64,000 nt of DNA from an uncultured Candidatus Saccharibacteria bacterium (GTDB lineage Bacteria; Patescibacteriota; Minisyncoccia; Phycocordibacterales; DATDWN01), in the NCBI GenBank assembly GCA_964391455.1, contig CAYMJQ010000002.1, forward strand, positions 12,688 through 76,687, written 5' to 3'. Position 1 is the first letter of the stretch. Every line of letters starts with the position of its first letter. Below are positions 291 to 56,626 of this stretch, one piece after another. A program made the position numbers and the translations under genes. The notes beneath the pieces were generated by a model. The model had not been told where the DNA came from. It did no database searches and saw only the letters and a list, made by a program, of their open reading frames with translations.

Positions 291-632
291 ATGTTAAAAA
301 AAAACAGAAGAATACAGAGGTCGTATTTTAAAAAAATAATAACAGAATCAAAGAGGTATCACTCAACCTCTTTTGTTTTATATTTATCAAAAATAAACAA
401 CAATACCACTCCTAGTAAATTTTCTTTTTCTATATCAAAAAAAATACTTAAATCTGCTGTAAAAAGAAACAAACAAAGAAGAAGGGCTTATTCTGTTATA
501 AAAAATGATTTGGAAAAAATAAAACCCGGATTTTTTTGTTTTTTTGTTTTTAAAAAAGGATTTCATGAAAAATTTTCAGATTTAGAAAAAGATATTAAGG
601 GGTTACTTTCTTCATCTGGTGTGTTAATATAG
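291..632 (+). CDS. rnpA: RNase P protein component
   Basis: A 113-aa basic protein in the position between rpmH and yidC, with a K/R-rich pattern typical of RnpA. Confidence 0.8.
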   Translation: MLKKNRRIQRSYFKKIITESKRYHSTSFVLYLSKINNNTTPSKFSFSISKKILKSAVKRNKQRRRAYSVIKNDLEKIKPGFFCFFVFKKGFHEKFSDLEKDIKGLLSSSGVLI

Positions 633-637
633 TCATC

Positions 638-1357
638 ATGATTACAATATTTAACACACTTGTATCCGAACCTCTTTATAGCACTCTTATATTTTTAATA
701 AACAAAATGCCCTTTTTTGATGTGGGTGTTGTAATAATTATATTTACAATACTAACAAAAATAGTTCTATTACCTCTTTCAATAAAAGCATCAAAATCTC
801 AATTAGAGATGAAAAATGCTGAAAAAGACATAAATCTTATAAAAGAAAAATATAAAGATAGCCCAGAACAAGGTTTGAAAATAATGGATTATTACAAAGA
901 AAAAGGAATAAATCCATTTATAGCTATTTTTATTGTTTTTATACAAATTCCTATTCTTATAGGTCTTTATAGAGTGTTTTTAAATCTTCCAGAAATAAAA
1001 ACAGATTGGTTGTATGGTTTTATAGAAATACCGTCATCCATAAATATGTTGTTTTTAGGTTTAATAGATATATCAGAAAAAAGTATTGTGCTAGCTGTTT
1101 TGGTTGGTGTAACAACTTATTTACAAACAAGCTTGGCTACTTCTAAGTCCGGAGAAGAAAAACAAACAAATAAAGAGGGGGATTTTGCAAAAGCAATGTC
1201 TTTTCAAATGAAGTATTTTTTACCACCACTTATTGCTGTTATTATTTACAACGTATCTTCAGCGGTAGCACTATATCTTTTGGTAAGTAACATATTCTCT
1301 ATTGTTCAAGAGTATTATATAAAACAAAAATATCACAAATCTATTGCAGTTGTTTAG
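638..1357 (+). CDS. yidC: membrane protein insertase YidC/Oxa1 (short form)
   Basis: A 239-aa polytopic membrane protein following rnpA, with a conserved YidC core (…INPFIAIFIVFIQIPILIGLYRVF…). Confidence 0.85.
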   Translation: MITIFNTLVSEPLYSTLIFLINKMPFFDVGVVIIIFTILTKIVLLPLSIKASKSQLEMKNAEKDINLIKEKYKDSPEQGLKIMDYYKEKGINPFIAIFIVFIQIPILIGLYRVFLNLPEIKTDWLYGFIEIPSSINMLFLGLIDISEKSIVLAVLVGVTTYLQTSLATSKSGEEKQTNKEGDFAKAMSFQMKYFLPPLIAVIIYNVSSAVALYLLVSNIFSIVQEYYIKQKYHKSIAVV

Positions 1358-23274: not shown

Positions 23275-23511
23275 ATGGCACAGGTGCAGCAGCTCGTTTT
23301 CGCCATCATGGTTATGTTTGTGGTGGCGACTGGGATTTCCGTCATGATTGGCGGGCTTCCCTTGGCTGGTCGACTCTGGAGGTCGGCCAGCAACCTGATC
23401 CGCCGACAGGTGGTCAGGTCTCTCGGATGGCTCTGGCGGAACTACCGCCGGGAAATCATTGGGTTCTGGGTGGGTGTTGCCACCACCCTGTTCGTTTTTG
23501 GACGCTTCTAG
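23275..23511 (+). CDS. GC-rich foreign-looking small membrane protein (78 aa, two TM helices, Arg-rich loop)
   Basis: An ATG lies 5 nt after the AGGAGGTG SD. The product is MAQVQQLVFAIMVMFVVATGISVMIGGLPLAGRLWRSASNLIRRQVVRSLGWLWRNYRREIIGFWVGVATTLFVFGRF. GC content is far above the flanks. A hairpin plus T-run overlaps the stop codon. The overlapping track ORF 23268..23543 is an alternative frame of the same GC-rich block. Confidence 0.5.
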   Translation: MAQVQQLVFAIMVMFVVATGISVMIGGLPLAGRLWRSASNLIRRQVVRSLGWLWRNYRREIIGFWVGVATTLFVFGRF

Positions 23512-25785: not shown

Positions 25786-27250
25786 ATTGTACGTAATGTT
25801 TTTTTCTAATTTTCTTTATTTCTATTTCATCCACTTCTTCCTTTATCATTTTCCCCTTTTCTCCTAATTCCCTTAATTTATTTTCTGGTAATTCCAACAT
25901 TTCTAAAGCTCTTTTTTCCATATATTCATCTGTGTTTTTACTAGGGTCCTCTAATACTTCTTCAAGAAGTGCGTGTAAAACAAAACCAACTTTCGGTCCA
26001 GGAGGAATTTTGCCTATTTCTATAATTTTTTTACCATCAATATTAAGCATTCCTACAGAAATCGGGTCACGGAGAGCTTCTTCAATCATTGAATGATATT
26101 TTCTGAGACGATAGGGGTCTTCTTTGGGTCTACCAGCTCCTATACGATCGCATATGCGTAGATTCATTAAATCCCATATATTTTCTCGTCCAACATTTAC
26201 AATCATTCTACGGACCGCAGAGAGCGTAATTTGCTCTGTGTCAGAGAAAAACATATGCCAGCGTATCATGGAAACAACTTTATCAATGATTTTTGTAGGA
26301 TATTTTAAATTTTCAAGAATTTTTTTAGTTTTTCTTGCTCCAAGAACTTCATGGCCAAAGAAAGTCCATTTTTTATTTTTCCCACCACCTCTTCTTGTTT
26401 CTGGTTTAGAAATATCATGAAAAAGTGCAGAAAGCCTTATTTCTAAAGGGTAATTTTTATCAGCTGAATGCTGTAGTGATCTAAGTAAGTGCTCCCAAAC
26501 ATCATAAGCATGTACTCCCCCTTGTTCCACCCCTACGGTTTCTAGTAGTTCAGGTGAAATATACTCTAGTAAGTTAAGTTTTTTAAGCATCAAAAGTCCC
26601 TTCATTGGGTTATCTGACATTACTATTCTAGTGAATTCATCTCTTATTCTTTCCTTTGATATATTTTTTAACAAAGATGAGCTTTCTAACATAGCTTTTT
26701 CAGTTTCTGGATGAATTTCAAAACTTAACTCAACAGAAAGTCTAATTCCCCTAATTATTCTAAGTCCATCTTCATTAAATCTTGATACAGGATCTCCTAC
26801 AGTTCTTATTAATTTGTCTTTTAAATCTTTTTCTCCACCATAAAGGTCAATAAATTCATTTTTAGATGTCGAATAGGCTAACGCATTCACAGTGAAATCT
26901 CTCCTTTTTAGGTCATCTTCTATTTTTTGGCTAAAAATAACGTTATTAGGATGCCTATTATCCAAATACTCCCCTTCTAATCTATACGGAGTTACCTCTA
27001 CCACTTTCAATGTTTCTTTTTCTACATTTTCATTTACAACTCCTACTGTACCAAAGGTATTTTCATAAAAAGTATTTGGGAACGAGGCTATTATCTGTTC
27101 TGGATTAGCATTTGTTGTTATATCCCAATCCTTCGGTTCCCTATCAAGCATAAGATCTCTCACGCAACCACCAACAAGAAAAGCTTCAAAGCCTTCTTTT
27201 TCTAGTTTTTTCGTTATGTTAGTTATTTCTTTTGGAATATTTAGTTTCAT
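25784..27250 (-). CDS. cca: CCA-adding tRNA nucleotidyltransferase / poly(A) polymerase family with HD domain
   Basis: An N-terminal GGCVRDLMLDREPKDWDITT nucleotidyltransferase head and a C-terminal HD domain. Confidence 0.8.
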   Translation of the reverse strand: MKLNIPKEITNITKKLEKEGFEAFLVGGCVRDLMLDREPKDWDITTNANPEQIIASFPNTFYENTFGTVGVVNENVEKETLKVVEVTPYRLEGEYLDNRHPNNVIFSQKIEDDLKRRDFTVNALAYSTSKNEFIDLYGGEKDLKDKLIRTVGDPVSRFNEDGLRIIRGIRLSVELSFEIHPETEKAMLESSSLLKNISKERIRDEFTRIVMSDNPMKGLLMLKKLNLLEYISPELLETVGVEQGGVHAYDVWEHLLRSLQHSADKNYPLEIRLSALFHDISKPETRRGGGKNKKWTFFGHEVLGARKTKKILENLKYPTKIIDKVVSMIRWHMFFSDTEQITLSAVRRMIVNVGRENIWDLMNLRICDRIGAGRPKEDPYRLRKYHSMIEEALRDPISVGMLNIDGKKIIEIGKIPPGPKVGFVLHALLEEVLEDPSKNTDEYMEKRALEMLELPENKLRELGEKGKMIKEEVDEIEIKKIRKKHYVQ

Positions 27251-27263
27251 CTAAATAAAATTG

Positions 27264-27335
27264 TGCTCTCGGTAGGAATCGAACCCACATCCACGGTTCC
27301 GAAGACCGGTACTCTATCCATTGAGCTACGAGAGC
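27264..27335 (-). tRNA. tRNA-Arg (anticodon UCG)
   Basis: I folded a cloverleaf by hand on the minus strand, read as gctctcg-ta-gctc…ccggt-cttcgga-accgt…gtggg-ttcgatt-cctac-cgagagc-a. It is 72 nt with one C-U mismatch at the top of the anticodon stem. Confidence 0.75.
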
Positions 27336-27369
27336 TTATTAATAATAACATGAAAAAGACAAAATTTTG

Positions 27370-27440
27370 TGCGGTCAGGGGTAATCGAAACCCCGACTGC
27401 TCCTTGGCAAGGAGCTGTTATACCACTTAACCATGACCGC
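27370..27440 (-). tRNA. tRNA-Gly (anticodon GCC)
   Basis: On the minus strand: gcggtca…gctcc-ttgccaa-ggagc…ggggt-ttcgatt-acccc-tgaccgc-a. It is 71 nt. Confidence 0.85.
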
Positions 27441-27679
27441 ATTATTTGATATTTACTATCATATAACAATTATTATAAAAATAAAAGCTTTTAATTTATC
27501 AGACAAAATTTTGTTCAATTGTGGATAACTCTGGGGACATGTGTATTAAAGACAAGTCTTTGACTATTGTCAAATTTAAGGACCTTATAGTACATATTTT
27601 TATTATATGGCTTAAAATAAGTCTATTTTTCAATAGACATGGCTATTAAAGGTCTGTTCTTTACGTTTTTTATAAAAGT

Positions 27680-27748
27680 TTCACGTGAAATATATAAAAT
27701 AGTTACATATGTAACAAATATTTATTTAGAATTGGTTACATATGTAAC
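27680..27748. promoter_or_regulatory. operator-like cluster: TTTCACGTGAAA palindrome plus two copies of the perfect 14-bp palindrome GTTACATATGTAAC
   Basis: The exact palindromes sit at 27680-27691, 27702-27715 and 27735-27748. Each 14-mer is followed by (A/C)AATATTTA. All lie upstream of the 27788 gene. Confidence 0.45.
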
Positions 27749-27787
27749 CAATATTTACTTATTTTAATATAGGAGTATATTTTCTTT

Positions 27788-28228
27788 ATGTTTAATAAAA
27801 AATTTCACAAAGAACCTACAGATAAACAGAAAATTGGCCAGATGGGAGAAGATATTGCCTGTAATTATCTTGAAAATAAAGGTTATAAAATAGTCGAGAG
27901 AAATTATCTAAAAAAGTGGGGAGAGATTGATATAGTTTCCAAAAAAAGCAATATAATTCATTTTGTTGAGGTAAAAGCAGTTACTAGGAATTTTGACAGT
28001 GTTACACATGTAACAAATAACGGTAATTATAAACATAATGACTCTTATAATCCCGAAGACAATATGCACCCTTGGAAACTCAAGAGGTTAACCAGAACAA
28101 TACAGTCATATTTGCTGGATAGAAGTGTTTCAGATGAAACAGAGTGGCAGTTTGATCTAGTTACTGTGTATATAGATTTAGATAAAGGACTTAATAGGGT
28201 AGAGGTTCTTGAAGACATTGTCCTATAA
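27788..28228 (+). CDS. YraN/UPF0102-like endonuclease-fold protein
   Basis: …GEDIACNYLENKGYKIVERNYLKKWGEIDIVSKKSNIIHFVEVKA… matches the YraN family pattern. The protein is longer (146 aa) with a C-terminal extension. Confidence 0.55.
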   Translation: MFNKKFHKEPTDKQKIGQMGEDIACNYLENKGYKIVERNYLKKWGEIDIVSKKSNIIHFVEVKAVTRNFDSVTHVTNNGNYKHNDSYNPEDNMHPWKLKRLTRTIQSYLLDRSVSDETEWQFDLVTVYIDLDKGLNRVEVLEDIVL

Positions 28229-28255
28229 TTCGAACTATTTCTTTGTGGTTCGAAA

Positions 28256-28645
28256 TTGTATAATTTAGATATGAAGGAATGTCGTTATTGTAAAAATAAA
28301 TATCCTGAGTCACATTTTGGAGTAGCACTCACCACTAAAGATAAAATTTATTATAGACATAAGTGTAAGTTTTGTTATCAAGAAACAAAAAAGAAGCTTC
28401 GAAGAAAGAATCAAGATTGGTTTCTTAATTTTAAGAAAAAGGGAAGGTGTAAATTATGTGGTAATAGTGATTATAGAGTTCTAGAGTTTCATCATTTATA
28501 TGAGAAGGATAAAGATTTTTCAATTGCTTATATGAGGAATAATAGTTTTAGTTTGGATAAAATGAGGCAAGAAATAAAAAAGTGTGCTATATTATGTGCT
28601 AATTGTCACAGGATTACACATTGGGAGAAAAACAGTTGGCAATAA
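28256..28645 (+). CDS. HNH endonuclease
   Basis: A Cys-rich 129-aa protein with the motifs EFHH…N…CANCHRITH. Confidence 0.65.
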   Translation: MYNLDMKECRYCKNKYPESHFGVALTTKDKIYYRHKCKFCYQETKKKLRRKNQDWFLNFKKKGRCKLCGNSDYRVLEFHHLYEKDKDFSIAYMRNNSFSLDKMRQEIKKCAILCANCHRITHWEKNSWQ

Positions 28646-28646
28646 A

Positions 28647-28718
28647 CGGAGTGTAGTGAAACGGCTATCATACCTGTTTTGGGAACAGGCGATCCGAGTT
28701 CGAATCTCGGCACTCCGA
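28647..28718 (+). tRNA. tRNA-Pro (anticodon UGG)
   Basis: cggagtg-ta-gtga…cctgt-tttggga-acagg-cgat-ccgag-ttcgaat-ctcgg-cactccg-a. It is 72 nt with a C1:G72 pair. It starts 2 nt after the HNH stop. Confidence 0.85.
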
Positions 28719-28783
28719 CAAGAGTTTTATGATAAACCGCCGACCTCACAAAGTGAGATTCGGCGGTTTGGTGGTAAGGTGTG

Positions 28784-28906
28784 CTAGGTGACTATCCCAG
28801 CATACCATTTTCCGGTTCGTCGCTTCCTGTTTGCAAATCGGTTTTTCCACTTGGCGTACTGAACGCCAGCGAAAAAAGCGATTACAAAAAGAACAATTTC
28901 TGTCAT
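28784..28906 (-). CDS. GC-rich 40-aa hydrophobic peptide with basic tail (type I toxin-like), SD-preceded
   Basis: My minus-strand translation is MTEIVLFVIAFFAGVQYAKWKNRFANRKRRTGKWYAGIVT. It is preceded by GGAGGG and 5 nt. It lies in a GC-rich structured block right after tRNA-Pro. Confidence 0.4.
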   Translation of the reverse strand: MTEIVLFVIAFFAGVQYAKWKNRFANRKRRTGKWYAGIVT

Positions 28907-28970
28907 TTTTCCCTCCATAAAAAATAGTACAACATATACTTTTTTTGTCAAAATATGTTATATTTCTAAA

Positions 28971-29267
28971 ATGCCGTTTATAAAAAATACAGAAAATTTT
29001 ATTTGTGAGAAGTGCGGTAATGAAGTAGTGGGGGATGGTTATACTAATCATTGCCCAGAATGTTTGTGGTCCAAACATGTAGATATTTATCCAGGGGATA
29101 GATTAAATACTTGTAAGGGTATGATGGAGCCGGTTGGAATAGAGAAGAAGGGGAGAGAATATAATATTTTACATAAATGCACCAAATGTGGTTTTGAGAA
29201 AACAAATAAGGCAAATAAAAATGATAATTTTCAAATGATAATTCAAGTCTCAGCTAATCCTAAATAA
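28971..29267 (+). CDS. small zinc-ribbon protein (CxxC…HCPEC…CTKC; RNHCP-like)
   Basis: A 98-aa protein with four Cys pairs. 'TNHCPECLW' resembles RNHCP-type ribbons. Confidence 0.45.
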   Translation: MPFIKNTENFICEKCGNEVVGDGYTNHCPECLWSKHVDIYPGDRLNTCKGMMEPVGIEKKGREYNILHKCTKCGFEKTNKANKNDNFQMIIQVSANPK

Positions 29268-29269
29268 AA

Positions 29270-30400
29270 TTATTTGATTAATTCATCAATTATCATTTTT
29301 GATAGTTCAGCTCCTTTTGTGTTTTGAAAGTTTTTTGCAAATTGTTCATGGTTTAGGTTTAAAAAACTTATCAAATCTAAAGATATTTCTTTTTGTAAGG
29401 ATCGGTTTATATATGGAGTTGTGATAGCATTCAAGTTTCTGGTACTAGTGGTTTCTCCATTTGAACTCGTGGTTATTATTCCAATAAGTAAAGAATTTTT
29501 ATCTACAACAAGCCCACCAGAAGAACCTTTTTGTGAGACTACAGTTCCTCCAACAGAGATTACATCAATAGTCTCTTCTTTAAAAGTAAATACATCTTGA
29601 ATATTAGTTATACTACTTACAATATTTAAATCTCTAAGTATTGATAGTCCTCCTAAAAATCCAGCAGGGTAGGAGGCGAGTAAGACCGGTTCTCCAATTT
29701 TAATATTTTCTCTAATACTCGGTTGTATATAAGGGATTGTTTCGTTTTTTGTAGGATTTAAAGTTTCTGTGATTCTTATAAACGCAAAATCATCTTTGCC
29801 TGTGCCTTGAGGGTCTTTGTCTTTTAATATCGCTTTATTTTCTTCTACCCAGTTTGGAGATATGTATACAAGTTCTAAATTGTATTTTGGGTATGCGGGA
29901 CTTCCTGTTCTACCTATACATTTTAGATAGTCCTTTTCTCCAAAATCTTTTAACAAAAAGTATTGTGCTATGTGTGCGTTGGTTAGGATTAAACCTTGTG
30001 AATTTATCAATACACCCGTGCCAGATATAGGGGATAGATCATTGTATTTTGTTGTACATAAAATATTTATTGTTGTTTTTCTAGCCTCAGTATTTATTTT
30101 TTCAAAATCTGGTAATGGTTCTGGTTCTATTTTGACTGGGATTTCTATTTTTTCTTCAATTTTTATTTCGGTTTTTGTTTCTGTTTTATTTGTATTTGTT
30201 TCTAAGTTTGGTCTTGGTACCAGGTTTGTTTCTTTTTCTGTGTTTTTAGTTGTTGTTGCCTTTGTTTCTACAACCGGTTCACTTATTGAAGTTTCTTTTT
30301 CTGGTGCTACATAAACAGGATCATTTGGAGACGTGTTGAATAATTGCCCAATGAATATTATCGGGGCGAATATGATAGAAATTATTGTCTTAATTAACAT
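29270..30400 (-). CDS. membrane-anchored trypsin-like (S1) serine protease
   Basis: An N-terminal TM helix, a Thr/Glu/Lys-rich linker, then a chymotrypsin fold (…TNAHIAQY…, …GSSGGLVVD…). No PDZ domain is visible. Confidence 0.7.
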   Translation of the reverse strand: MLIKTIISIIFAPIIFIGQLFNTSPNDPVYVAPEKETSISEPVVETKATTTKNTEKETNLVPRPNLETNTNKTETKTEIKIEEKIEIPVKIEPEPLPDFEKINTEARKTTINILCTTKYNDLSPISGTGVLINSQGLILTNAHIAQYFLLKDFGEKDYLKCIGRTGSPAYPKYNLELVYISPNWVEENKAILKDKDPQGTGKDDFAFIRITETLNPTKNETIPYIQPSIRENIKIGEPVLLASYPAGFLGGLSILRDLNIVSSITNIQDVFTFKEETIDVISVGGTVVSQKGSSGGLVVDKNSLLIGIITTSSNGETTSTRNLNAITTPYINRSLQKEISLDLISFLNLNHEQFAKNFQNTKGAELSKMIIDELIK

Positions 30401-30470: not shown

Positions 30471-30541
30471 GCGGGATTAGTTTAGTGGTAGAATGACTGC
30501 CTTCCAAGCAGTATACACCAGTTCGATTCTGGTATCCCGCA
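30471..30541 (+). tRNA. tRNA-Gly (anticodon UCC)
   Basis: gcgggat-ta-gttt-agtggta-gaat-g-actgc-cttccaa-gcagt-atac-accag-ttcgatt-ctggt-atcccgc-a. It is 71 nt and very similar to bacterial tRNA-Gly(UCC). Confidence 0.85.
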
Positions 30542-30735
30542 CAAAATAAAATCCCCGAATGGGGATTTTATGTTGAGGATACCAGAATCGAACTAGATAG
30601 AGTTCGGGAAAGAAAGTCTTTCCCGTGGAGGAAGGCAACGAGCGGAGCGAGTGTTGGAAAACCGAGGGTTTCCAAGGAGTGAGATATCTGGTATCCCGCA
30701 CACGAGAAGCCCGAAAGGGCTTTTTATTGTGTGTG
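30542..30735. repeat. tRNA-Gly 3'-end-derived direct and inverted repeats framing a GC-rich structured element, with flanking terminator hairpins
   Basis: The 15-nt direct repeat ctggtatcccgcaca occurs at the tRNA 3' end and again at about 30684. An inverted near-copy of the T-arm and acceptor (gaggataccagaatcgaact) lies at about 30574. Hairpin plus T-run terminators sit at 30549-30572 and 30705-30730. Confidence 0.45.
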
Positions 30736-31273
30736 GAATAAGCAAAACATTGTTTTGCGTCCAGAATCGAAAGACGGAGCGGGTACCAGTTCAGCAGAAC
30801 TGGTCGTGAGTCGAGGTTGTTCTCTACAGTTTCATTTATTGTGTTATAATTTGGTAATTGTGAATACAATTACCTCCGGTCAAAAGTTTTTTTATAATTT
30901 AATTGCTAATGTAGTTTTTCTACTGCATTTATTTCTGGTTTTGGTGGTTTGTATTGGTTGGGCTTTTCCTTCTTTGTTTTATCTATTTTTATTTCTACTT
31001 TCAATAACAGCTCTTTCTGAAATTTTTCTAGGATATTGTATTTTAACTAAGTGGGAATTTAGTTTAAGAAAAAAAATTGATCCAAGTAGACAATTTGATA
31101 CATCATGCATATTTCATTATGGTAGAGCCATGTTCGGATTAGGACCAAGGGTTCCAACTAATAAAAAAGAAGCCGGATTTTTCAAAAAGTATTCATCACT
31201 TCTAGTGTTACTACTACCTTTATTAGGAGCTATTCTGGTTAAGTTTGGGCCAGGGACTTTACAAAATTTTTGA
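30731..31273 (+). CDS. small polytopic membrane protein resembling DUF2784 (C-x-LT-x-WE motif); N-terminus uncertain
   Basis: The C-terminal two-thirds (…LHLFLVLVVCIGWAF…SEIFLGYCILTKWEFSLRKK…) looks like a real membrane protein. The track start overlaps the tRNA-derived element, so the true start is probably an internal GTG or TTG (30806 or 30860). An extended -10 tgtgttataat lies at about 30841. Confidence 0.4.
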   Translation: MWNKQNIVLRPESKDGAGTSSAELVVSRGCSLQFHLLCYNLVIVNTITSGQKFFYNLIANVVFLLHLFLVLVVCIGWAFPSLFYLFLFLLSITALSEIFLGYCILTKWEFSLRKKIDPSRQFDTSCIFHYGRAMFGLGPRVPTNKKEAGFFKKYSSLLVLLLPLLGAILVKFGPGTLQNF

Positions 31274-31284
31274 TAGGAGTAATA

Positions 31285-31452
31285 TTTAACACGGAGGTTC
31301 ATCGGGGTCTAGCCACTGTGCTCAAGTCCACGCTAAGTGAAAACTGGTCCGGATTTTCCGGATAAAGGACCACAATAAATGTGGACTCGCGGTGCACTTG
31401 CACCCCAAAGAACACCGGCTGAGAGTTGCTTCGGCAGCTCTCAGCCTTTTAT
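31285..31452 (+). ncRNA. candidate structured RNA / elaborate 3'UTR ending in a UUCG-loop terminator
   Basis: A GC-elevated block with nested stems (agtccac…gtggact enclosing ggtccgg…ggacc). It ends in the ggctgagagttgc-ttcg-gcagctctcagcc hairpin plus T-run (31417-31452). A second, bidirectional terminator follows. Confidence 0.25.
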
Positions 31453-31457
31453 ATTAT

Positions 31458-31487
31458 CAAAAAACACCTTGTTACAAGGTGTTTTTT
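31458..31487. terminator. bidirectional intrinsic terminator (A-run, hairpin aacaccttg/caaggtgtt, T-run) ending hup
   Basis: The sequence aaaaaacaccttgttacaaggtgttttttg is visible. Confidence 0.55.
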
Positions 31488-31534
31488 GATTTCTTCTAGA
31501 AAAAATCAGACATCTGTGTCAGATTTAAGAACTT

Positions 31535-31807
31535 TTACTTAACGGCTTCTTTAAGAGCCTTAGCTGCTCTAAACTTAGGAACTTTCATCGCAGGAACAGA
31601 GATTGTTTCTCCTGTTCTTGGGTTTCTTGCTTGTCTTGCAGCTCTTGTCTTTGTTGAAAAGATTCCAAGACCGGCTATAGATACCTCACCACCTTTTTTA
31701 AGGGTGTTTACTATAGAATCTATTACTAAATCCACTACTTCTTCAGCTTGGACCTTTGTACTGCCCAATTTTTCATGTACCGCATCCACAATACCTGCTT
31801 TATTCAT
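31535..31807 (-). CDS. hup: DNA-binding protein HU
   Basis: A 90-aa canonical HU fold sequence (…GFGTFSTKTRAARQARNPRTGE…). Confidence 0.9.
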   Translation of the reverse strand: MNKAGIVDAVHEKLGSTKVQAEEVVDLVIDSIVNTLKKGGEVSIAGLGIFSTKTRAARQARNPRTGETISVPAMKVPKFRAAKALKEAVK

Positions 31808-49174: not shown

Positions 49175-49780
49175 ATGAGCACCTCATTTCGTCAGGTAGT
49201 GAAGATTGCGAATACTCTGGAAGAGAAAGGGCTAACACCCGAACTCATCCAGTCTGAGCTTTTGGGTAGGGGAATTCTCGCAGATATCGCCGAGGCGGTG
49301 GTTCTTGGAACTGTGCCTAATCGCCGAGAGTTTCAGAAGTTTCTCGGAATTTTACCACCCCCTATTCCTCTCCTCGTCGACTACACGATGAGCCTCACCA
49401 AGATGATCTCAGCAGGAAAGTACGACCGTAAGAACTCAAACGTGAATAACAAGAACTTTCCCCGCACCAAGTCGGGGAAGTTCACGGTGGAGGTAGAGCT
49501 TCTACAAATATATCGGCAAACCTATTCGGAGAGCGTTCTCGTCGAGATGTTGAAACTCGGTTTCCGTCCGGCGACTCTGGAAGAACTCCTCTCATTCGGA
49601 GTCACAAACCCAGAAGTTCAGAGAGAGTTCCCTGTGGTTGCTCTCGGATCATCCTGTGTTCTGGATGGCGTTCGCCACGTTCCGTACCTAAGTGGGGACA
49701 ATTTGGAGCGCGACCTTGACCTGGACTGGTTCGCCAGCTGCTGGGGTCGCGGTTATCAGTTCCTCGTCGTTCGCAAGTGA
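49175..49780 (+). CDS. GC-rich foreign-looking hypothetical protein (201 aa)
   Basis: It is preceded by an AGGAG SD 6 nt before the ATG and a palindrome ctgccTGTggcag. Its composition is strongly GC-shifted. A UUCG-tetraloop hairpin (cctcgagtgg-ttcg-ccactcgagg) follows the stop. I recognise no domain. Confidence 0.5.
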   Translation: MSTSFRQVVKIANTLEEKGLTPELIQSELLGRGILADIAEAVVLGTVPNRREFQKFLGILPPPIPLLVDYTMSLTKMISAGKYDRKNSNVNNKNFPRTKSGKFTVEVELLQIYRQTYSESVLVEMLKLGFRPATLEELLSFGVTNPEVQREFPVVALGSSCVLDGVRHVPYLSGDNLERDLDLDWFASCWGRGYQFLVVRK

Positions 49781-52093: not shown

Positions 52094-52122
52094 TTGACAA
52101 AAAAAATGCTTAGTATATAATT
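52094..52122 (+). promoter_or_regulatory. consensus sigma70 promoter TTGACA-16-TATAAT
   Basis: The sequence reads ttgacaaaaaaaatgcttagtatataat. Confidence 0.5.
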
Positions 52123-52128
52123 GTGTTT

Positions 52129-52221
52129 GAACGAGCATCCCCAAGGGGCACTGCTCGGAACGTAAGACAATTAAGTATCGGGTACTACCCCGGGCCCCTA
52201 AAAAGGCCCGGGTTTCTCTTT
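52129..52221 (+). ncRNA. candidate ~90-nt small RNA (or attenuator leader of rnhA)
   Basis: It runs from the consensus promoter to a GC-clamped terminator, cccgggcc-cctaaaaa-ggcccggg plus tttctcttt. It has internal stems (cgagca…tgctcg, cccc-aa-gggg). No ORF or SD is present. Confidence 0.35.
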
Positions 52222-52249
52222 GCAAAAATATATTTGTTATACTAATTAA

Positions 52250-56136: not shown

Positions 56137-56334
56137 ATGAAGCACACCCTTCTTTGGGTTCGTGGTGGGGCGGAGGAAGTGGAACTTCCTTTTTCCGCTT
56201 CTCCGAGTGACGCGATGCCTCTGGCGAGGCGTCATGTTGAGAACTTGTCGCAGTCGACGGTGCCTTTGTCGAACTTCCGGCTTCGGATGCCGGATGGTCG
56301 CGAGGTGCCGATCGACCCCAAGAAGAAGCACTAG
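56137..56334 (+). CDS. GC-rich foreign-looking small protein (65 aa)
   Basis: A GGAGG SD 4 nt upstream. The product is MKHTLLWVRGGAEEVELPFSASPSDAMPLARRHVENLSQSTVPLSNFRLRMPDGREVPIDPKKKH. A perfect terminator follows. Confidence 0.4.
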   Translation: MKHTLLWVRGGAEEVELPFSASPSDAMPLARRHVENLSQSTVPLSNFRLRMPDGREVPIDPKKKH

Positions 56335-56422: not shown

Positions 56423-56626
56423 ATGAGGGAAAATTGTTACGAGCTTCGCTGGCGGGTTGGTCAGGAGAAGATAAAGACGGGGTTTATGAATTTTTTTGGG
56501 GAGAAAGAAAAAGTTCTTCCTGAGGCAAGGGAAGTCGCCCAGAGGATTCATGGAAGAAATCCACTCATGAAGGATTTCTCTCTTCGAGGACCATGGGGAG
56601 AGGAAACTCCGATTTCTGTAAGCTAG
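56423..56626 (+). CDS. GC-shifted small protein (67 aa), second cistron of the cassette
   Basis: A GGAGGA SD 6 nt upstream. The product is MRENCYELRWRVGQEKIKTGFMNFFGEKEKVLPEAREVAQRIHGRNPLMKDFSLRGPWGEETPISVS. Confidence 0.4.
   Translation: MRENCYELRWRVGQEKIKTGFMNFFGEKEKVLPEAREVAQRIHGRNPLMKDFSLRGPWGEETPISVS

Follow-up and report, generated by a model that had tools for sequence, protein, structure and literature searches.

We examined a 64,000-nucleotide stretch of DNA (hereafter the window) and describe a small gene on its minus strand, located at positions 28734-28951 next to the gene for tRNA-Pro(tgg) (28647..28719, plus strand). By its hallmarks the window appears to be part of a Parcubacteria/Patescibacteria chromosome, and its genes are closest to sequences labelled Candidatus Zambryskibacteria, Minisyncoccia or Parcubacteria. 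Read along the minus strand, the unit consists of a promoter, a short leader with a Shine-Dalgarno (SD) sequence, a 40-codon open reading frame (ORF) and a hairpin, in this order and with canonical spacing. A consensus scan identified the promoter as a -35 hexamer TTGACA (28946..28951) followed, after a 16-nt spacer, by a -10 hexamer TACTAT (28924..28929), which together match the consensus at 10 of 12 positions. The -10 hexamer ends 7 nt before the SD sequence GGAGGG (28911..28916); the predicted transcription start lies near 28918-28917, which would leave a leader of ~11 nt. The coding sequence (28784..28906, with ATG at 28906-28904 and TAG at 28786-28784) comprises 40 codons plus the stop and specifies the peptide MTEIVLFVIAFFAGVQYAKWKNRFANRKRRTGKWYAGIVT, which we refer to as type A. 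At 28906-28784 it reproduces exactly the peptide quoted in the initial annotation of the locus, which had also named the SD motif GGAGGG correctly but set it 5 nt from the start codon, where we count 4 nt (AAAA).

The GC-rich, hairpin-bearing block that the same annotation had placed right after tRNA-Pro is likewise present, with 43-50% GC compared to 33% for the window. Its inverted repeat, aaaccgccga/tcggcggttt (28734-28743/28760-28769), lies 14 nt past the ORF stop on the minus strand and 15 nt past tRNA-Pro, and forms a terminator-like hairpin of 10+6 bp (28734..28769, minus strand; -24 kcal/mol, z = -6.1). This hairpin is shared with tRNA-Pro, a convergent neighbour outside the peptide gene whose 3' trailer would enter the same structure. 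An ORF of at least 40 residues with an SD sequence occurs in ~1.2% of Markov-1 simulated 241-nt regions of the same composition, a chance rate that is suggestive, not decisive, for a 64-kb scan.

Large-scale searches for relatives of the peptide returned nothing: a word-index search of a 5.8-billion-protein collection produced no candidate, phmmer had 0 hits among 1.84 billion representatives, and scans of genome and metagenome contigs with a 55-residue TTG-extended version of the ORF, which required exact 8-mers, gave no tblastn-confirmed relative. The exact 3' half of tRNA-Pro also had 0 hits in metagenome contigs, and on L001, the single other contig carrying the window's copy, the ORF is uncalled. 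Homologues were reached via synteny, local tblastn and then a two-sequence profile. Local tblastn of the peptide against the fetched loci identified L012 (E = 1e-5; product MNMSVLAVAGIFFLIARAGYLEYKKSDAYRNRGRRRGKWYAGLVP), and the profile search identified P0121 (43 residues) and P0122 (45 residues), both previously gene-called by independent pipelines and corresponding to the copies at L092/L093 and L094, respectively. These orthologues reside in related Zambryskibacteria-like genomes and share 44-50% identity. The family alignment contains 17 invariant columns, including those of a C-terminal GKWYAG.V motif.

In support of selection acting on the protein, the ratio of nonsynonymous to synonymous substitutions (dN/dS, Nei-Gojobori) was 0.11-0.12 at a dS of 0.74-0.92 when L012 and L092 were compared with L094, and 0.15 between L012 and L092. 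Between the window and L092, the proportions of synonymous and nonsynonymous differences were 0.71 (pS) and 0.35 (pN), and four of the seven conserved codons in the GKWYAG.V block differ synonymously only. Synonymous differences are spread over the ORF, with no protected stretch exceeding ~6 codons. Since the peptide is conserved under purifying selection, the ORF is more than a chance occurrence, and from these comparisons we consider it very probable that type A is a translated protein gene under purifying selection.

The regulatory elements are conserved together with the coding sequence. Equivalent promoters in L092 and L094 match the consensus at 11 of 12 positions and keep the 16-nt spacer; at the orthologous positions the -10 hexamer reads TATGAT or TATTAT. 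Across seven cassettes (alignments A1, A3 and A5), which include those of a second peptide type, type B, described below, the -35 hexamer TTGACA is invariant. An SD region ATGGAG is kept in all type A cassettes and in the type B cassettes of L006 and L007, and reads AGGAGG in the type B cassette of L102. Two alternative starts were rejected. The TTG start of the 55-residue version falls within the -35 hexamer. Leaderless initiation from the ATG contained in ATGGAG would be in frame for the window and L006/L007; in L012, L092 and L094 this ATG is out of frame, so it is not the conserved start. At the other end of the unit, the 3' hairpin is the sole fold common to all cassettes. The base of its stem is similar in each, ACCGCC(A/G)(G/A)...(C/U)(U/C)GGCGGU, while the upper stem varies yet stays paired. 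Two adjacent stem pairs are swapped between the window and the others (G-C, A-U to A-U, G-C), and this exchange of whole pairs indicates that the stem is retained. Promoter and terminator accompany the ORF despite different neighbours, namely an acetyltransferase gene in L012 and a cassette for a KGG-repeat protein in L094. In three of the four loci (the window, L012 and L092/L093) the type A gene occupies the same slot, divergent from the operon of the zinc-ribbon protein RNHCP; the L094 copy lies on a 993-nt contig without RNHCP context.

The sequence of the product predicts an N-terminal hydrophobic helix (approximately residues 4-20), a strongly basic segment and the conserved C-terminal GKWYAG[IL]V. 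In the window peptide, the apolar run spans residues 4-15 and the net charge is +7. AlphaFold2 modelled one long helix, with a predicted local distance difference test (pLDDT) score of ~85 over the first 20 residues and 58-67 in the tail; this single-helix model adds little, and together with the apolar run and the charge it is consistent with a small single-pass protein. The proposal made at the outset, a transmembrane helix with a basic tail, thus stands as far as the general make-up is concerned, while insertion of the helix into the membrane is predicted and plausible only. Among Pfam, NCBIfam, PADLOC, PHROGs and Rfam, no described family matches the gene, and no PHROG of annotated function was matched. 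Matches of the peptides in Pfam, NCBIfam and PADLOC were all sub-threshold and unrelated (TOPRIM_C, CcoM and DUF6724). Of these, the Pfam family DUF6724 was rejected, as the match to P0121 (E = 0.009) was below the cut-off and the window peptide had none. Type A thus appears to represent a new lineage-restricted small-protein family, probably membrane-associated. As a type of gene it is familiar, encoding a small, lineage-restricted hydrophobic protein that annotation had missed.

We favour, with moderate confidence, the reading that the locus is a self-contained, monocistronic minus-strand gene for an accessory or modulatory small membrane protein, as opposed to a repressed suicide toxin. In this model, the sigma-70-type promoter TTGACA-16-TACTAT would start an mRNA with a very short leader near 28918, the strong SD sequence would drive translation of the 40-residue protein, and the stable hairpin would end the peptide transcript and, in the window genome, also close the convergent tRNA-Pro transcript. 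The peptide would insert in the cytoplasmic membrane with its N-terminus out and its C-terminus in, following the positive-inside rule, and the conserved cytoplasmic tail would dock on the inner membrane face or on a partner. A benign small membrane protein is favoured over a toxin because the conserved element is the tail motif and not the helix, and because expression is apparently unrestrained. Small single-pass membrane proteins such as AcrZ, MgtS, CydX, KdpF and MgrB act by binding larger membrane proteins. Like type A in the model above, they have 30-50 residues, a single N-terminal helix, a cytoplasmic basic tail and their own small transcription unit. Unlike these proteins, to which it has no known homology, type A is compositionally atypical and strain-variable, and was found only in a Zambryskibacteria-like clade.

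Several observations weigh against this interpretation. The unbroken apolar run comprises only 12-14 residues, the 19-residue Kyte-Doolittle mean, calculated by hand, is ~1.3 and thus under the usual 1.6, and L012-type orthologues carry an Arg within the apolar segment; given the short run and the Arg, membrane insertion is plausible, not certain. The hairpin is without a long U tract and was hence unscored by the terminator scan. In addition, the family consists of four distinct sequences only, falling into two subgroups, and several sister genomes lack the gene or have another in its place. It is therefore accessory, and its patchy presence also fits selfish or defence-type genes.

Type A is one of several occupants of a variable slot. 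In relatives, the interval between YraN and RNHCP contains an HNH, a NUDIX or a GNAT acetyltransferase gene, or nothing, and directly divergent from the RNHCP operon lies one of several GC-rich small genes, each with an SD sequence and a hairpin. Type A is carried by the window, L012 and L092/L093, in addition to L094. Type B is a basic, aromatic peptide of 31 residues with the pattern MW.PF+KKK...PLW[YF]RLYD[LF]WFCGFHH; its sequence is MWNPFRKKKREDNRHPLWYRLYDLWFCGFHH in L007-L010, the same with one Lys codon fewer in L006, and MWYPFKKKKDGDYRPPLWFRLYDFWFCGFHH in L102 (genes on the minus strand at 3839-3946 in L007, 140-244 in L006 and ~1335-1430 in L102). This peptide is conserved too, and the differences between its copies include synonymous changes and the in-frame indel of a codon. 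Homology between the type A and type B ORFs, with frameshifted versions included, was not significant at the DNA or protein level. The two types share both flanks (alignments A1 and A5), that is, the promoter TTGACA-16-TAnnAT and the terminator stem ACCGCCAG...CTGGCGGTTAA. In L011/L013 and L014, whose genomes have ~37-40% GC, the slot is filled by genes of 61-64% GC for KGG-repeat (YciG/GsiB-like) stress-type proteins of 68-72 residues (Pfam KGG, E = 4e-10), which lie on the minus strand at 3705-3920 in L011, equivalent to 2202-2420 in L013, and at 1116-1322 in L014. L094 combines both kinds of gene: a KGG-type ORF (~440-660, plus strand; BLASTP E = 8e-14 to the L013 protein) stands in tandem directly upstream of its type A cassette. 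Finally, ORFs of 119-131 residues occupy the slot in L018 and L019.

The orientation of the single tRNA-Pro gene relative to the conserved flanks flips among close relatives independently of the peptide cassette, and all four combinations of peptide type and tRNA orientation were seen (type A/plus in the window, A/minus in L092, B/plus in L102 and B/minus in L007; tRNA-Pro lies at 3669-3742 in L007 and 2151-2224 in L092). Flips relative to RNHCP also occur among the relatives with other cassettes, L007-L010, L014 and L028. In a rough neighbour-joining tree of RNHCP and the adjacent protease, calculated without support values, the window groups with the type B genomes, while L012 and L092 fall on another branch with genomes in which the slot holds a KGG gene or is empty. 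In the simplest history suggested by these sequences, type A would be ancestral, replaced once by type B and lost in some lineages; repeated swapping of cassettes by recombination in the shared flanks is a possible alternative to a single replacement. A more far-reaching idea, which we think unlikely, is that the slot works as an 'expression socket' beside the RNHCP operon, in which a fixed promoter-SD element and terminator stem would frame unrelated, mutually replacing GC-rich micro-genes in Zambryskibacteria-like Parcubacteria. Its occupants would be the type A helix-plus-basic peptide and the aromatic-basic type B 31-mer, accompanied by KGG stress proteins. On this view, both peptides are membrane-active effectors, either toxin-like or used in interactions with hosts, competitors or phages, and their high GC content at third codon positions (GC3) would be under active maintenance despite a genomic GC content of 33-37%.

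The slot is embedded in a conserved gene order, which runs from the CCA-adding enzyme through tRNA-Arg, tRNA-Gly and YraN/UPF0102 to the variable stretch with tRNA-Pro, and continues with RNHCP, a trypsin-like protease, tRNA-Gly, DUF2784, HU and RNase Y. The RNHCP zinc-ribbon gene (28971-29267; Pfam E = 7e-29) neighbours the peptide gene and has many relatives at 70-81% identity. On the other side, the gene for a phage-type HNH homing endonuclease (28256-28645, plus strand; phrog_2255, E = 3e-32) ends with its stop codon 1 nt from tRNA-Pro. An HNH gene next to tRNA-Pro is also found in L102 and apparently in L027, as a fragment, and is absent from most relatives. The suggestion that the locus is the remnant of an integrated element, which cited both nuclease genes, found little backing: in all relatives examined, YraN/UPF0102 is one of the syntenic genes, a search of 27200-29400 found no att-like copy of the tRNA-Pro 3' end, and the ORFs neighbouring the block are YraN, HNH, RNHCP and the protease, with no integrase-like ORF near it. 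In this neighbourhood the HNH gene alone looks mobile, judging from its distribution.

Three other explanations were weighed against a gene for a benign small membrane protein. That the block is a non-coding structured RNA (a tRNA-Pro trailer, a small RNA (sRNA) or a cis-regulatory leader of RNHCP) with a fortuitous ORF is highly improbable, even though it forms a GC-rich island within an AT-rich genome, both strands of the window sequence fold far better than shuffles (z = -5.8 for the minus and -4.6 for the plus strand) and an ORF of at least 40 residues arises in ~20% of simulated regions. The orthologues retain the protein and not the structure: their mRNAs fold otherwise and less exceptionally (z = -3.3 and -1.4), and third-position changes predominate. 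The coding-region hairpin of the window is presumably in part expected from U-rich hydrophobic codons lying opposite A-rich Lys, Arg and Asn codons. Rfam searches of the block, at the gathering threshold and up to an E value of 10, returned tRNA only, with no SRP, 6S or RNase P signal; the block also lies upstream of, and outside, any RNHCP leader, and its plus strand is without a terminator-type U run. As conservation of RNA structure is limited to the terminator, selection acts on the coding sequence, and the hairpins are best read as the terminator of the gene plus lineage-specific mRNA folding, not as a conserved RNA gene. An integron attC site was also rejected as a reading of the hairpin: attC sites are at least ~57 nt long, the hairpin has ~34 nt and is missing the GTTRRRY/RYYYAAC boxes, and each unit has its own promoter.

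The initial annotation had viewed the locus as a type I toxin-like gene, with hairpins on the plus strand as the antisense antitoxin. A gene for a peptide with a helix and a basic tail is indeed present, whereas the toxin-antitoxin (TA) pair found no support. We consider it distinctly unlikely that type A damages membranes as a toxin and that a plus-strand cis-antisense RNA neutralises its mRNA, be it a dedicated sRNA or a tRNA-Pro trailer, including the variant in which trailer and toxin mRNA would have the bidirectional hairpin in common, like RNAI and RNAII of Fst. What speaks for a toxin in the available sequences is chiefly the composition of the peptide. According to Fozo et al. 2010 (PMC2887945), type I toxin proteins can be nominated by a length of less than 70 residues, at least 10 hydrophobic residues in 15 and a C-terminus that is polar, aromatic or charged; the window peptide conforms to this, with 12 of 15 hydrophobic residues at positions 4-18. 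Its A-K-W-K-N-R segment also follows the Ldr/Fst signature, in which the helix gives way directly to a conserved Trp and then to a cluster of charged residues (PMC2887945). The gene is moreover accessory and patchy, its terminator is shared with the convergent tRNA in the window, and its mRNA is strongly structured there. Against this, the post-helix Trp is not found in L012, P0121 or P0122, whose invariant Trp sits in the C-terminal GKWYAG, and no Hok, Fst, Ldr, TisB, Ibs or other toxin model in Pfam, NCBIfam or PADLOC matches the peptide. A sigma-70-type consensus scan of the window, L092 and L094 detected the sense promoter only, and no antisense promoter. The GC-rich hairpins are accounted for by the gene's own terminator and by window-specific pairing within the coding region; the plus strand folds well, as had been anticipated, and the mRNAs of orthologues fold differently. 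Plus-strand RNA over the block in the window could come solely from tRNA-Pro read-through, and in L092/L093 tRNA-Pro is co-directional with the peptide gene, so the convergent overlap is not conserved. A shared antisense region would also be at odds with synonymous change suppressed over no more than ~6 codons. Neither a second copy of the peptide (tblastn against the window and 91 loci gave one copy per locus) nor a stretch of more than 12 nt complementary to the block (in the 64-kb window) was found. The toxin mRNAs of hok, tisB, zorO and aapA1 are long and translation-blocked, the opposite of an ~11-nt leader with an exposed SD sequence; no conserved fold sequestering the SD was found in the window mRNA or two orthologous mRNAs, and the strong consensus promoter and exposed SD argue for free expression of the peptide. 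In summary, type A resembles the Fst/Ldr superfamily, and generically Hok, TisB, Ibs, ShoB, ZorO, BsrG and TxpA, in its size below 70 residues, in having one helix followed by aromatic and charged residues, and in being often missed by gene callers, taxonomically narrow and accessory. It differs in the lack of a family match or a detectable antisense or adjacent sRNA gene, in its single copy, in its short, unstructured leader and in that its conserved part is the C-terminal GKWYAG[IL]V and not the helix. A full-text literature search found no paper containing both 'type I toxin-antitoxin' and 'Candidate Phyla Radiation'. The third explanation concerns origin and is compatible with a small membrane protein: the gene may be a horizontally acquired, moron-like cassette, once the cargo of a mobile element, at a recombination hot spot beside tRNA-Pro, which we regard as possible and somewhat doubtful. 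It would account for the independent promoter and terminator, the changing inserts between YraN and RNHCP (HNH, NUDIX, acetyltransferase, type B, KGG and the ORFs of 119-131 residues), the phage-type HNH gene abutting tRNA-Pro, and the atypical composition, with a GC3 of 0.45 in the window gene and 0.73-0.80 in the orthologues (in genomes of 36-38% GC) compared to 0.215 +/- 0.064 for large ORFs of the window. However, this high GC3 is kept across a dS of ~0.8, which argues against recent import followed by amelioration. The absence of an att-like tRNA repeat and of a nearby integrase-like ORF, the core synteny of YraN and the flanks, and a tree of flank proteins that can be reconciled with vertical inheritance of type A from a common ancestor, a single replacement and some losses also count against it. 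A viral origin was rejected, since no type A relative was found in IMG/VR; the hairpin pattern ACCGCCAG...CTGGCGGTTAA matches seven unrelated phage contigs there, as a generic terminator.

Phage morons, which are independent promoter-gene-terminator units, are similar to type A in having their own sigma-70 promoter, a hairpin terminator, deviating GC content and variable presence. They are unlike it in that the type A gene lies in conserved chromosomal synteny, not in a prophage, and that no phage relative was found. The window contains four further GC-rich orphan genes on the plus strand, at 23275-23511 (78 residues), 49175-49780 (201 residues), 56137-56334 (65 residues) and 56423-56626 (67 residues). 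Each has a GC3 of 0.46-0.73, an SD sequence and a hairpin terminator, and two of them (23275 and 56137) have a consensus promoter; none of the four has a Pfam family. These units, which add to the case for a cassette origin, resemble morons in architecture and are chromosomal in context. The product of 23275-23511 is Arg-rich and looks like a two-helix membrane protein.

With type A, the Candidate Phyla Radiation (CPR)/Patescibacteria, whose small proteome is essentially unannotated, gain a family of small proteins on which selection acts at the protein level, and the locus shows that a type I toxin should not be called from peptide composition alone. The presence of several GC-rich, self-contained micro-genes in AT-rich Parcubacteria genomes deserves to be surveyed systematically. 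The polymorphic slot with its shared promoter and terminator, together with the maintained GC-rich codon usage, raises the interest of the locus somewhat, and if the peptides were indeed membrane-active effectors, this would bear on how episymbionts deal with their hosts or with phages.

In addition to the block beside tRNA-Pro, we noted other structured regions in the window. A GC-rich block at 30545-30830 follows tRNA-Gly(tcc), whose 3' end tctggtatcccgcaca at 30528-30543 recurs at 30688-30703, with its reverse complement near 30578-30596. This block, which has no credible Rfam match, may represent an att-like remnant that was duplicated, or else a structure resembling a tRNA. Between the DUF2784-like ORF and the HU gene lies a structured intergenic block of ~50% GC (31290-31470), for which the single Rfam match was far sub-threshold (43 bits against a gathering score of 100; minus strand, 31417-31536). 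At 52095-52235, a consensus promoter (TTGACA-16-TATAAT) precedes ~110 nt of GC-rich, hairpin-rich sequence with no SD, upstream of an RNase H-like gene; this region has no Rfam match at E values up to 1 and is a candidate sRNA or leader.

Finally, two observations concern the genes flanking the slot. The only consensus promoter for RNHCP on the plus strand, TTGTCA-16-TAAAAT (28945-28973), has a -10 hexamer that overlaps the annotated ATG, and the overlap is similar in L012 and L007; judging from these sequences, the RNHCP mRNA may be leaderless or its start misplaced. The -35 hexamer of this promoter, TTGTCA, forms a palindrome with the TTGACA hexamer of the peptide gene. The palindrome GTTACATATGTAAC occurs at 27702-27715 and 27735-27748, upstream of the YraN/UPF0102 gene, and at 28001-28014 inside it. 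In relatives, the region upstream of YraN again contains similar motifs, as well as cacgtgaa, and the palindrome may be an operator or a recombination site.

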